Of a stretch of DNA of 32,000 bases, positions 21,019 through 25,094 are shown one piece after another (the stretch's first letter is position 1; each line of letters starts with the position of its first letter). The translations under genes were made by a program, and so were the position numbers. A model generated the notes under the pieces. It was not told where the DNA came from. It searched no databases and saw nothing but the letters and a program-made list of their open reading frames with translations. The DNA comes from Candidatus Heimdallarchaeota archaeon (GTDB taxonomy: Archaea; Asgardarchaeota; Heimdallarchaeia; JABLTI01). The stretch is from the NCBI GenBank assembly GCA_030614005.1, contig JAUWKS010000032.1:4025-36024 (forward strand), written 5' to 3'.

Positions 21019-21723
21019 ATGTTATGAAACAGCGACATAAATAACAATATATATTTTTTCATTGTGGCAGTTAATGCATTACTTCTAAAGATTGAATACC
21101 TGACTTAGATAATGTTGAAAGAATGATCGGTAACTGTCTGATAAGAATGGAGCGAATCAGCAAGCACTGTTTTTTATTAAATTATAGCGAGAAACACTCG
21201 AGAGTATCAATAAGTGAAAAAATTAAAACAGAGAAAGAAAGCAATTAACAGTTAACAGTTAAAAGACAGATAACAAACACAAAGAAATTAACACCTCTGA
21301 GTGCCAAAAAAAGTTAAATAGAAAAAAGAGTACTATTAACTTTACCGAGGAATTTTGTGTCGAGTGAAAAGAGATATTCTATCCTAGTAGCAAGATTTAA
21401 AACAGTCGGGCAAAACAACAAACCGCTCTGATAGAGCAGAACACTGAACAAAAAACAATACGAATGGGAATACAAATCCTATCGGTATGTTTTTATAATG
21501 AAAAATTCAGTGAACAAAACCGCGAACAATCGCACAACAACAGCAATTGTTGAGCGAAAAGACGCAAAATTACGATAATTGATTAAATTATTGATGCGCT
21601 TGGCGAGACAGTGAAGCTCGCTGAGTAAGAGGTAAAAAATGTGACCACCTGGCGCATCGGTATGGGAATAATGATCAAACATTTCTCTCAAACCGAACGC
21701 TAATTAAGACGTCTGTTTTTACC

Positions 21724-21763
21724 GTAGAAGGCCTCACTTCTTCAAGTGAAATCTAGATCTCCA
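21724..21763 (+). other. 5' arm of pre-23S processing stem
   Basis: GTAGAA-GGCCTC-CTTCTTC-AAG..TCTAGA-TCTCCAT is complementary to 25033-25078. Confidence 0.75.
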
Positions 21764-23786
21764 TAGTAGGTTCCGACACGCAAACGCCATCTGGGGGATG
21801 GATTGGCTCGGACGCCGATGAAGGACGTGGCTAGCTGCGATAAGCGCGGGGTAGCTGCAGGCAGGCATAGAACCCGTGATTTCCTAATGGGAACTCCTAA
21901 TGCGAACCAATAAGTCGCATTACTCCGTAAGGAGGGGGAACGCACCGGACGGAAACATCCAAGTAGGTGCAGGAAAAGAAATCAACTGAGATGCCCAGAA
22001 GTAACGGCGAGTGAAATGGGCATAGGCCAAACTGAATCCCCATACGCAAGTATTGGGAAATGTAGTGTTACGGACTCTCTATTGAGCTCTGCGATGCGAA
22101 GCTGAATATTCTGGAAAGCTTAACTAAAGAGGGTGATAGTCCCGTAAGCGTAAACATCCCTGAGTGTGAGAGTATCCTGAATAGCGGGGGTTGGAAATCC
22201 CTCGTGAATGGGGCACAACGAGCTCCAAGCCTAAATACGTTCCGAGACCGATAGCGCAATAGTAACGTGAGTGAAAGCTGAAAAGTAACCCGGAAGGGTA
22301 GTGAAAAGTGCCTGAAACCAGATGGTTATAGACGTTTGTGGCCCGAAAGGTAAGATCCTCCATGAAGAGAAAGCTGGTGACAGCTAGATCGTTTGGAGGG
22401 GACCGGGGTCACAAGTTCCGTCTAGAAACACGGACCAGGGAGGTCATACTTGTGGCAAGCTTAAGTGATGTCAAAAACACGCAAGCGTAGCGAAAGCGAC
22501 ATGCCCGCAGTTTACAAGGGGCGCCGTCTGAAAGGGCGGGAAGTCACAGGTGTGAGACCCGAAACCGGACGATCTACCCCTGAGCAGGCTGAAGCCTAGG
22601 GAAACCTGGGTGGAGGGCCGAGCAAGTATTGACGTGCAATTCATGTTTGTTGACTTGGGGGTAGGGGCAAAAGACCAATCTAGTCCGGTGATAGCTGGTT
22701 CCCAACGAAGTGGACATAGGCCAGCCTGCTCTGAGATGGAGCATTCGGTAGAGCAATGATTGATGGTTACGGGAAGTAAAATTCTCGCCTGTCAGTCAAA
22801 CTACGAACGGATGTTTATCGTAGAAGAGTAGAGTCGGGCGTGCGTGCGTAAGGCACGTGGCCGAAAGGGGAATAACCCAGACTATGGTTAAGGTCCCTAA
22901 ATCTCGATTAAATGCTAAAATTGGAAGGACGTCATTGGACTAAGACAGTAAGGCGGTAGGCTTAGAAACAGCCACCCGCTAAGAAAAACGTAACAGTTTA
23001 CTTACCGAGTCCTTTGGCTCCGAGAATGGACGGGGCTAAATCGAGTACCGATACCTTAGAATACATTGAAAGATGTAATTTGATAGTTGGGCGATCTGGT
23101 TGGGCGGAAGCAGGGCAGTGATGTCCTGTGGACCGATCAGATTTGCAGATCCTGGCGGTAGTAACAGCAAAGAGAGGTGAGAATCCTCTCCGCCGAAAGG
23201 GCAAGGTTTTCACGGCAACGTTCGTCAGCCGTGAGTTAGTCGATCCTAAGGGCGCTCTTATCTGCGGCGCTCGAAAGGGAAACAGGTTTAAATTCCTGTA
23301 CTGCGTGGATACGTCAGAAGCGGCAACGCGAAGATCATTTTCTGACGCGACTGGATAAGCTCTGTAAAGTTATCGCTTTATTTAACTATATAACCCTCAG
23401 AAGTACCGTGACGGTGAGAATGAGGTGAAATTAGGAATAGGCTGCCAATAGTGGCGGCTCGAGCTTTTTCCACTCGCCCATGAAAAGGAAAATGATAAGG
23501 ATTCCACGTAATCGTACCCAGAACTGACACAGGTGTCCCAAGGTGAGAAGCCTAAGGCGTGTTCGATCAACGATGGTGAGGGAAATCGGCAAATTCGCCC
23601 CGTAACTTCGGGATAAGGGATGCCTGTGGGCTTGAAAGGGCTCGCAGGTCGCAGTGACAAGGAAGGAACAACTGTTCAATTCAAACATAGCAAACCGCAA
23701 GGGTGAAAACCTGTGAACGGTTTGTGAATCCTGCTCAATGCTGGTATGTGAAAGCCGGGTCCAACCGGTCCAAGCACCAGTCAATA

Positions 23787-23826
<40 letters not shown>

Positions 23827-24353
23827 TGTCGGATAAGTACCGACGTGCATGAACGGATCAATGATTCCTTCGCTGTCCCCACCGTCGATCGAGTGAACCC
23901 ACTAGCCAGCGAACAGTCTGGCACCAACCAGCGGGAAGAGAAGACCCCGTGGAGTTTTACTGCAGCCTGTGCCTGTTTTACGGGTAGTTATACATAGTGT
24001 AGTCAGGAGCGTCGAACCAAATTCTCAGGGATTTGGGAATGCAACAATGAAACACTGACTTTAACGGCTTGTTTGACTAACTTCTACTTCTGTAGAAGGA
24101 CAAGTATTGGTGGGCAGTTTAGCTGGGGCGGCTGCGCTTGAAAAGGTATCGAGCGTGTCCAAAGGTTAGCTCAGAAGGGACGGAAACCCTTCGTAGAGTA
24201 TAAGAATAAAAGCTAGCTTGACAGGGTTCTTTCCCATAGGGAACTCTGCAACGAAAGTTTGGTCTAGCGATCTGTCGATGGATCTCGTTGATTCACGGCA
24301 GCGGCAGAAAAATTACCCCGGGGGTAACAGAGTCGTCGCAGGCGAGAGCTCAC

Positions 24354-24422
24354 ACTCTCCAGACAAAAAGTTACCTCGATATATAAAGAAAGATCTAGGT
24401 TTACGTTCTGGAGGAGGAGTAT
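24354..24422 (+). other. 69-nt BHB-type intron in 23S helix 89 loop
   Basis: GCTC/GAGT central helix, ACA and ATA bulges; excision gives the consensus GAGCUCAC|AUCGAC. Confidence 0.88.
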
Positions 24423-24510
24423 ATCGACCCTGCGGCTTGCTACCTCGATGTCGGCTCTTCCTCTCCTGGCGCCGCACAAGACGCCAAGGGTAGGGTTGTA
24501 CGCCCATTAA

Positions 24511-24553
<43 letters not shown>

Positions 24554-24604
24554 ATTCTTTCTACTGGTTGTGCTGGGAAATTGAGGGTAGGGCAGGGTCG
24601 GTAC

Positions 24605-24665
24605 ATTGTATGAGATGTACAGATTCAAACTACATGATTAGTTTAGTAATCTCTTATAAGCCAAA
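24605..24665 (+). other. 61-nt BHB-like intron in the sarcin-ricin loop (helix 95)
   Basis: Excision gives GUAC|GAGAGGAC; intron stem TTGTATGAGAT/ATCTCTTATAA; relaxed BHB. Confidence 0.85.
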
Positions 24666-24792
24666 GAGAGGACCCCCCCGTCGGCGCCTCTAGTCTACCG
24701 GTTATCTGACAAGGTAACGCCGGGCAGCCACGCGCCAAGCGATAATAGCTGAAAGCATCTAAGCTAGAAACGCGTCCTGAAACGAATTTCCC

Positions 24793-24923
24793 ATTCTAAC
24801 GAAGTTTCGACAATGATTGACTCTTACAAGCTGTTTAGAGTTGTGTTACAATTATGAAAAATTATTTTTTTAGTTGGTCGTTTCGAGCATGGGAATGGCG
24901 ACATTAACATGTTTTCGTTGGAC
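24793..24923 (+). other. Supersized expansion segment ES39 (helix 98 position)
   Basis: 131 nt between AATTTCCC and GAAGG; basal stem 24795-24804/24913-24922, long stem 24807-24821/24873-24886, GCGA tetraloop hairpin 24894-24905. Confidence 0.8.
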
Positions 24924-25003
24924 GAAGGTTCCGATACAAGATCGGTTTGAAAGGAGTGCGGTGTACGCGTCGAGTCTTCGGGCGAGATGCTCAGCCGGCA
25001 CTT

Positions 25004-25065
25004 ACTTACCACCTAAGCGTGTCATTACCGAAATGGACTTCTAGACCTTAAAGAAGAAGCGAGGG
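25004..25065 (+). repeat. Direct repeat copy 1 (23S 3' end + processing-stem arm; attL-like)
   Basis: 25020-25058 is identical to 29684-29722 (39 bp), with imperfect extension on both sides. Confidence 0.9.
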
Positions 25066-25094
25066 CCGTAGATTCTACAAAATAATTATCAGTT

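Follow-up and report, generated by a model that had tools for sequence, protein, structure and literature searches.

A putative 61-nucleotide mini-intron in the sarcin-ricin loop of a Heimdallarchaeota 23S ribosomal RNA gene

We analysed a 32,000-nucleotide (nt) stretch of DNA from a Candidatus Heimdallarchaeota archaeon, called the window here, in which a 23S ribosomal RNA (rRNA) gene is interrupted by 61 nt inside the sarcin-ricin loop. The insert stands in the only such gene of the genome assembly and is likely, as far as can be judged from the sequence, to be an archaeal-type mini-intron without an open reading frame (ORF), one that would be cut out by the tRNA splicing endonuclease EndA at a relaxed bulge-helix-bulge (BHB) motif and whose exons would be joined by the ligase RtcB. 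The sarcin-ricin loop is among the most conserved of all RNA sequences, and one break in it is enough to kill the ribosome. All coordinates below refer to the whole window, while positions such as 2658/2659 follow the E. coli numbering.

Position, boundaries and distribution of the insert

The contig that contains the host gene is at least 36 kb long, the window being C95:4025-36024, and this gene is the one large-subunit (LSU) gene match in the whole assembly (G000; 3.6 Mb, 126 contigs, 90% complete). In the Rfam alignment, helix 95 (H95) of this gene contains 70 nt, compared to 9 in the archaeal LSU model. The bond at which the insert stands, C2658|G2659, is the first bond of the GAGA tetraloop of H95. 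The upstream exon ends with GGUAC (...GGGUCGGUAC) at 24604, and the downstream exon, GAGAGGACC / GAGAGGACCCCCCC, begins at 24666. The end bases are not interchangeable (C against A at one end, A against G at the other), so that a single register restores the consensus and the insert is exactly 24605-24665. When these bases are removed the sequence becomes GGUACGAGAGGACC, which is identical to that of the intron-less congeners G007 and G009. An earlier note on this DNA had stated that the loop is split by 61 nt and that removal at cuts placed by the EndA rule restores its consensus. The split is evident from direct reading of the sequence and from the Rfam alignment, and the restoring cuts proved to be the same as the boundaries fixed independently by G007 and G009. 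The insert has no ORF, and a search of it against Rfam gave no family match, ribozymes included, up to E = 10. No further copy of it was found in the G000 genome, and the uninterrupted loop RGTACGAGAGGAMC is nowhere present in G000, G005 or G010.

Five genomes of the same GTDB genus contain this part of the LSU gene, namely G000, G005, G010, G007 and G009, and the records of the relatives are deposited as Candidatus Heimdallarchaeota archaeon metagenome-assembled genomes (MAGs). An insert at the same bond is found in G000 (61 nt), G005 (isolate 12F4_9; 62 nt) and G010 (very probably HM7_B34; 65 nt), and homologous inserts of 64 and 61 nt occur in two Joint Genome Institute (JGI) metagenome contigs; one of these five insert-bearing assemblies is a 130-kb contig. 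Homologues at the same bond in five independent assemblies indicate that the insert is real DNA and not an assembly artefact. The loop is uninterrupted in G007 and G009, where the sequence is GGGTCGGTAC|GAGAGGACCCCCCC and the junction is exactly GGTAC|GAGAGG; the upstream exon variants GCUGGGAAAUUGAGGGUAGGGCAGGG of this lineage also differ in these two intron-less genomes. Between G000 and G005, the insert is identical at 46/64 positions and the flanking exon bases at 39/40. With the insert drifting and the exons conserved, the gene must have stayed under rRNA constraint, and the combination reads as the signature of a working gene from which the insert is removed.

The similarity among the inserts tracks the LSU tree, with G000, G010 and Ga0255448 in one group and G005 resembling Ga0114923. 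The intron-less G007 and G009 group together as a clade. The LSU tree does not resolve the base of the genus, and the carriers as one clade are not rejected (AU, approximately unbiased, test, p = 0.33). From the sequences at hand, the distribution fits vertical descent within part of one genus, with either one gain or one gain and one loss. The features of a mobile (homing) intron are absent, as the insert has no ORF and no second copy and its distribution is compatible with vertical descent. A trans-acting homing endonuclease, for which the earlier note had proposed a search, was rejected, as no LAGLIDADG_1 gene was found in the G000 genome and the LAGLIDADG_3 ORFs show no link to the site. 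There are 11 LAGLIDADG_3 matches in G000 (e.g. L171-L178), ten in frames of about 480-555 amino acids and one in a 1637-amino-acid frame. Apart from the question of the insert, these genes may be inteins or a paralogous family, and no link from them to rRNA inserts was seen.

Public sequencing runs were also consulted. Six RNA runs contain 31-51% of the words sampled from 24300-24900. For the intron with its 15-nt flanks 6 words were sampled and no RNA run was listed, which is too few words to weigh either way. All 6 words are present in four DNA runs; these are possible sources of the DNA and hence not independent support.

Predicted splicing motif, enzymes and competing fold

According to the EndA rule, each cut lies 2 bases 3' of one strand of a 4-bp central helix. 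With the boundaries taken from the comparison alone, the central helix H of the insert consists of C.A, G-C, G-C and U.G, and is therefore paired at 3/4 positions; the strands and bulges are given in Table 1. The outer stem h' is paired at 10/11 positions with one U.U mismatch, and it is flush with the 5' bulge with its first 5 pairs contiguous. The stem is offset by 1 base from the 5' end of the insert and by 6 from the 3' end, which is the expectation for a BHB, unlike that for a plain stem-loop insertion. Directly after the AAG triplet there is just 1 exon-exon pair, for which reason the 3' bulge is classed as relaxed (HBh'/BHL-like). All the parts of a relaxed motif of the HBh' or BHL type are found, namely a central helix, one proper bulge with an outer helix, and cuts 2 nt past the strands of H. 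A strict BHB is not formed, with helix H at 3/4 pairs and the 3' bulge not closed. The earlier note had described a hairpin with the inner stem AAACTA/TAGTTT, which is confirmed, the outer arms TTGTATGAGAT/ATCTCTTATAA pairing at 10/11 positions. It had also described a relaxed BHB with bulges ACA and AAG; CGGU/GCCA with one C.A mismatch and the ACA bulge stand, but AAG is not a closed bulge, the bases there belonging to a bulge of 8 nt instead.

Both strands of H, both bulges and the ends of the insert are invariant in 5/5 homologues. In stem h', the homologues show two pairs with changes in both partners and three with a change in one partner, with pairing kept, and the inner hairpin reads AAGCUA/UAGUUU in G005, where the stem is kept through a G.U pair. 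The geometry was compared with 20,000 dinucleotide-preserving shuffles of the insert, with the boundaries fixed by comparison. It was found that 17.7% of the shuffles reach 3/4 central pairs and 1.0% reach 5 flush h' pairs, and that 0.175% reach both. When the boundaries were slid from -12 to +12, none of the 24 other offsets was comparable to offset 0.

The mechanism we propose would begin in the pre-rRNA, where the exon CGGU would pair with the intron GCCA and the 11-bp intron stem would stack on that helix. This would leave the 5' site within a bulge of 3 nt (AC|A), while the 3' site would fall in a larger bulge (AA|G), two bases beyond the helix. Both sites of this relaxed HBh'/BHL-type motif would be cut by the (alpha-beta)2 splicing endonuclease, RtcB would join the exons to GGUACGAGAGGACC, and the intron would probably be circularised. 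It would have been passed on vertically within part of the genus, with no linked homing endonuclease. The earlier note had called splicing and ligation an obligatory checkpoint, a phrase that adds nothing testable beyond the splicing requirement itself.

The enzymes for such a mechanism appear to be encoded. Two genes of the G000 genome match PF01974 (EndA). P0001, the product of one of them, has its nearest matches in the catalytic alpha subunits of Sulfolobus and Aeropyrum (2cv8, 3p1z_B; E ~1e-36), and its K75 aligns on Aeropyrum K44 without gaps through the Crenarchaea-specific (L1) loop; K44 of the Aeropyrum specificity loop is named in PMC5829648. The more divergent paralogue, P0002, is taken to be the EndA beta subunit. 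RtcB is also present (PF01139, 578 bits), so that the endonuclease type for relaxed motifs and the ligase are both predicted from the genome, the former as an (alpha-beta)2 enzyme with a broad-specificity loop. Relaxed motifs are cut only by (alpha-beta)2 and epsilon2 enzymes with such a loop, and Asgard archaea have been reported to have the (alpha-beta)2 type carrying L1 (PMC5829648). ARAGORN identified 24 tRNA genes in G000, 13 of them with called introns, and the splicing pathway is therefore in heavy use. This intron load fits the heavy tRNA interruption reported for Asgard archaea.

Several points weigh against the insert being a spliced intron of this type. It is known here from DNA alone, and from this we infer both the splicing and the active conformation; the specificity of the Asgard endonuclease, likewise, we infer from crenarchaeal enzymes. 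Helix H contains a C.A mismatch, the 3' site lies outside a closed 3-nt bulge, and the central helix by itself has a chance expectation of 17.7%, although its placement is exact and the outer helix is present. The predicted folding is a further point. When folding is predicted with about 100 nt of context, forcing the BHB costs 7-10 kcal/mol relative to the minimum in 5/5 homologues, and the BHB is thus not the stable or dominant precursor fold predicted for the insert; the hairpins of the competing fold are included in Table 1. The substitutions among the 5 homologues keep the pairing in both folds, and the two apparently compensatory h' pairs are single wobble-to-Watson-Crick changes in the rival fold. 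Because all the substitutions are compatible with the rival fold too, covariation does not discriminate between the two, and its signal, at 15/500 shuffles, is weak for 5 related sequences.

The rival fold can be traced to the 5' arm of the intron (within 24606-24620), which resembles the loop itself (GUAUGAGAUG compared to GUACGAGAGG, 8/10; GUACGAGGUG in G005), with GUAC recurring. Because of this resemblance the 3' arm is able to pair with either partner. The chance of such a match somewhere in 61 nt is estimated at roughly 2%, and the resemblance may be a coincidence.

Table 1. Coordinates of the host gene, the inserts and the predicted RNA elements. Window coordinates are given unless a locus is named.
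Feature	Coordinates	Strand	Remarks
23S (LSU) rRNA gene	21770..25028	+	Rfam archaeal LSU model RF02540, 2542 bits, model positions 1-2987
61-nt insert, putative mini-intron	24605..24665	+	Between C2658 and G2659 of the sarcin-ricin loop
Central helix H, 5' strand CGGU (exon)	24599..24602	+	Faces GCCA; invariant in 5 homologues
Central helix H, 3' strand GCCA (intron)	24660..24663	+	Invariant in 5 homologues
5' bulge AC|A	24603..24605	+	Predicted cut after 24604, the comparative boundary
Stem h', 5' arm UUGUAUGAGAU (DNA TTGTATGAGAT)	24606..24616	+	Pairs with 24649-24659
Stem h', 3' arm AUCUCUUAUAA (DNA ATCTCTTATAA)	24649..24659	+	Pairs with 24606-24616
Inner hairpin AAACUA (24627-24632) / UAGUUU (24639-24644)	24627..24644	+	In both the minimum-energy and the BHB-constrained folds
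3' cut region AA|GAGAGG	24664..24671	+	8-nt bulge when GGGU (24595-24598) pairs with ACCC (24672-24675); predicted cut after 24665
Competing hairpin GGUACAUU / GAUGUAC	24600..24620	+	Minimum-energy fold of 5/5 homologues and RNAalifold consensus; buries the 5' site
Competing hairpin UCUCUU (intron) / GAGAGG (exon tetraloop)	24650..24671	+	Minimum-energy fold of 4/5 homologues and consensus
Helix 89 insert, 69 nt	24354..24422	+	In all four full-length LSU genes of the genus
34-nt sarcin-ricin-loop insert, G044 (CP147779, Atabeyarchaeia-1)	L230:3584-3617		
34-nt sarcin-ricin-loop insert, G042 (CP147780, Candidatus Atabeyarchaeum deiterrae / Atabeyarchaeia-2)	L231:3543-3576		
34-nt sarcin-ricin-loop insert, G043 (isolate LC30, JAHPYV01)	L201		

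Inserts in the same gene and in other Asgard archaea

The same 23S gene has another short insert in helix 89 (H89). Its BHB has 4/4 central pairs and an AC|A 5' site, and its minimum-energy fold contains both H and h'. The earlier note had pointed to the shared AC|A 5' site, and the motif analysis of both inserts agrees; their sequences have nothing in common. Other inserts were observed in the genus. One of about 229 nt stands at the GGGAUAACAG site (window ~24325, GGGGGT|AACAGAG) in G005 and G009, and another of 850-880 nt stands at LSU position ~2037 in G005 and G007, while G000 lacks both (L014, L004, L006). As congeners carry inserts that are missing from G000, the intron content is a mosaic within the genus. 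At the H98/ES39 (expansion segment 39) position there is a 131-nt expansion (24793-24923), with shorter counterparts of 62-63 nt in the corresponding place in Atabeyarchaeia. The flanks of the 23S gene, 21700-21775 and 25020-25090, form a long bulged processing stem, with no clean 3-4-3 BHB in the minimum-energy fold. The window contains no 16S gene, and the rRNA genes thus appear to be unlinked.

A second interruption of the sarcin-ricin loop was found in Atabeyarchaeia, an Asgard class distant from the Heimdall group, where a 34-nt insert is present in 3/3 genomes of that Asgard family and reads GUACGAG|AGGGC...CCGUAA(A/G)|AGGAAC. The sequence allows four registers, and the EndA rule selects G2661|A2662, which lies 3 nt further 3' than the Heimdall site and is the alpha-sarcin bond. 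This register gives UACG/CGUA for H (4/4), AG|A for the 5' bulge and 4-5 flush pairs for h'. The fold with the BHB either has the lowest predicted energy or comes within 0.9 kcal/mol of it, and only 0.04-0.13% of shuffles match. No intact sarcin-ricin loop was found in the three Atabeyarchaeia genomes, two of which are closed chromosomes. With closed genomes having no uninterrupted loop, the interrupted Atabeyarchaeia gene must be the working gene. The 23S gene of Atabeyarchaeia-1 (L230) has four more inserts of 33, 49, 32 and 106 nt, at ~2505, 2665, 3281 and 3413, which are located in domains IV and V and which Atabeyarchaeia-2 lacks. Lying near the peptidyl-transferase centre, they may on sequence grounds be counted as candidate mini-introns. 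The publication on these genomes deals with tRNA introns but says nothing of the 23S gene.

This second case shows that short inserts of BHB type recur in this loop among Asgard archaea, which is no proof that the Heimdall insert is spliced, and by our analysis such elements would have entered the loop at least twice. The earlier note had suggested a family of miniature introns at functional centres of the Asgard LSU rRNA. The kind of element does recur, in H89 and in Atabeyarchaeia, but the inserts share no sequence, and what recurs is therefore a kind of element and not one sequence family.

The wider distribution was surveyed with an intron-less 300-nt segment as the BLAST query against 399 Asgard species-genomes, in 206 of which the region was found, and with a pattern search. 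Among the BLAST matches listed, only G000, G005 and G010 have a break exactly at the Heimdall site; the pattern search added Atabeyarchaeia to the carriers. The count of carriers is a lower bound because the region is missing or at contig ends in many genomes, bases beside it are unavailable in G187, 122 weaker matches are unlisted, and BLAST bridges inserts shorter than about 40 nt. A scan of contigs for GGTACGAGAGGACC gave mostly chance matches, with 4/120 in an LSU context among the matches listed.

Some deviations from the conserved LSU sequence were noted in the course of the survey. The genus reads CGGUACGAGAGGACC, with a G at position 2654 of the supposedly universal AGUACGAGAGGA (window 24600-24601). 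G2654 would give a G-C pair in H, and it was considered as an exon adaptation to the intron. This idea was rejected, since G2654 is also present in 10/38 other sampled Asgard LSU genes (L179-L218) and in the intron-less congeners. Within the sample of 38, GGACC in place of GGAAC is found in this genus only, and the pattern search lists AGUACGAGAGGACC in a few other Asgard genomes. In L221 (G336:C43), at ~1328-1400, the LSU sequence appears to jump from the H94 region straight to GCUGAAUGCAUCUAAGC, with ~130 nt including the whole sarcin-ricin loop missing; a misassembly, a pseudogene or some stranger cause may lie behind it. In L203 (G292:C94:240-507) several universal positions deviate and the loop reads AGUCCGAGAGGAAC, and AAGGCAG replaces GAGACAG. 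By its sequence this LSU fragment would be either from a fast-evolving lineage or a decaying copy.

Alternative explanations and comparison with known systems

The competing fold raises the question of whether the intron is removed by another route or structure, either with the stable alternative fold being seen by a different nuclease or with a rearrangement that depends on proteins or assembly taking place first. This fold is the minimum by 7-10 kcal/mol in 5/5 homologues and is also the RNAalifold consensus, every substitution is compatible with it, and the likeness of the intron 5' arm to the loop provides the 3' arm with two partners. It puts neither site where known nucleases cut precisely, however, while the BHB geometry at the comparative boundaries is improbable by chance (0.175%) and the insert matches no Rfam family, ribozymes included, at E = 10. 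We also know of no other exact cut-and-join pathway in archaea for such short ORF-less inserts, and we regard removal by a different route as unlikely. A group I intron, which would have hundreds of nt and a catalytic core recognisable by covariance models, was rejected, as the insert has 61 nt and no Rfam match up to E = 10.

There is even less to recommend a 23S rRNA that is fragmented or expanded at the loop, through excision of the insert without rejoining or through its retention as an intervening sequence or expansion segment, and we consider this very unlikely. Known intervening sequences and expansions occupy variable helices, and the insert is not in one; it stands inside the universally conserved H95 GAGA tetraloop, where a single break (the alpha-sarcin site) inactivates ribosomes. 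Congeners function with an uninterrupted loop, and the exon halves are perfectly conserved in 5 diverged carriers, which is sensible only if they are rejoined. It is true that archaeal 23S rRNA can be processed unconventionally, for example with excision of H98 and circular permutation in Pyrococcus (PMC7758197), and that the same gene has a large expansion of the H98/ES39 type. The insert might also belong to a dead or chimeric rRNA copy or be an artefact of assembly, with the working 23S gene in the unassembled 10%; G000 is after all a MAG of 126 contigs and 90% completeness, and MAGs often lack rRNA genes. Nevertheless, five independent assemblies, the 130-kb contig among them, have this insert at one and the same bond, it has diverged while the exons were conserved, and the gene, located inside a contig of 36 kb or more, matches the full model with 2542 bits. 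The analogous Atabeyarchaeia genomes are closed and have no intact loop. An artefact or dead copy is accordingly extremely unlikely.

If the insert is an ordinary spliced intron, as we think likely, it is expected to represent a new site and a new host for a known mechanism and not a new mechanism. A broader proposal, which we regard as rather improbable, is that the Heimdall and Atabeyarchaeia inserts represent undescribed Asgard ORF-less mini-introns that colonised the loop independently at least twice (C2658|G2659 and G2661|A2662) and were kept for long without a homing endonuclease, with their retention being non-neutral. EndA and RtcB would then gate the completion of the loop late in assembly, and in the Heimdall case a switch to the BHB from the fold that masks the 5' site and GAGA would set the timing.

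In a literature search that was not exhaustive, we found neither an archaeal-type intron reported for the sarcin-ricin loop nor any rRNA intron reported for Heimdallarchaeota or Atabeyarchaeia. Should the mini-intron be confirmed, every ribosome of these organisms would depend on the tRNA-splicing enzymes, and the substrate range of EndA and RtcB would be wider in the closest prokaryotic relatives of eukaryotes. The two unrelated mini-introns of the loop, which come from two Asgard classes, together with several other inserts of 30-110 nt near the peptidyl-transferase centre, point to the 23S genes of Asgard archaea as an unexplored source of short introns. Such introns would be easily missed in rRNA annotation, in phylogeny and in the design of primers and probes. 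The weak Heimdall motif, which is not the ground state, is also a test case for how much substrate relaxation the (alpha-beta)2 endonuclease accepts.

Among known systems, the rRNA genes of Thermoproteales contain short hairpin-forming BHB introns (Jay & Inskeep 2015, PMC4496867). Like the Heimdall insert, these are ORF-less hairpins of tens of nt at highly conserved rRNA sites, and their proposed removal is by the tRNA splicing endonuclease, cutting at a BHB, with RtcB as the ligase. Larger introns that bear an endonuclease occur alongside them in relatives. The Heimdall insert differs from them in its Asgard, not crenarchaeal, host, its site in the sarcin-ricin loop, its relaxed motif and a BHB that is not the predicted ground state. 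In bacteria of the candidate phyla radiation (CPR), group I introns are found at 23S position 2657 (site 23IS14), usually with LAGLIDADG_1 genes (Tsurumaki et al. 2024, PMC11270868). They too stand inside the sarcin-ricin loop, which means that DNA of this loop can be an intron target while the genes stay functional. The CPR introns are bacterial, self-splicing and hundreds of nt long, often with an endonuclease gene, whereas the Heimdall insert has 61 nt and no ORF.

The closest parallels come from the archaea themselves. Asgard and TACK archaea have non-canonical tRNA introns with relaxed BHB motifs that are cut by an (alpha-beta)2 EndA with the L1/CSL loop (PMC5829648, PMC11291895, bioRxiv 10.64898/2026.10.13.758758). 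They share with the Heimdall insert both the predicted enzymes and the relaxed motif classes (HBh', BHL), but the substrate here would be 23S rRNA at a universal functional loop. The Atabeyarchaeia insert is likewise an ORF-less hairpin that interrupts this loop; an intron stem follows the 3-nt bulge of its 5' site, and its 3' site stands in a looser loop. It differs in standing 3 nt further 3', in its unrelated sequence, in its perfect 4-bp central helix and in a BHB fold at or near the energy minimum.

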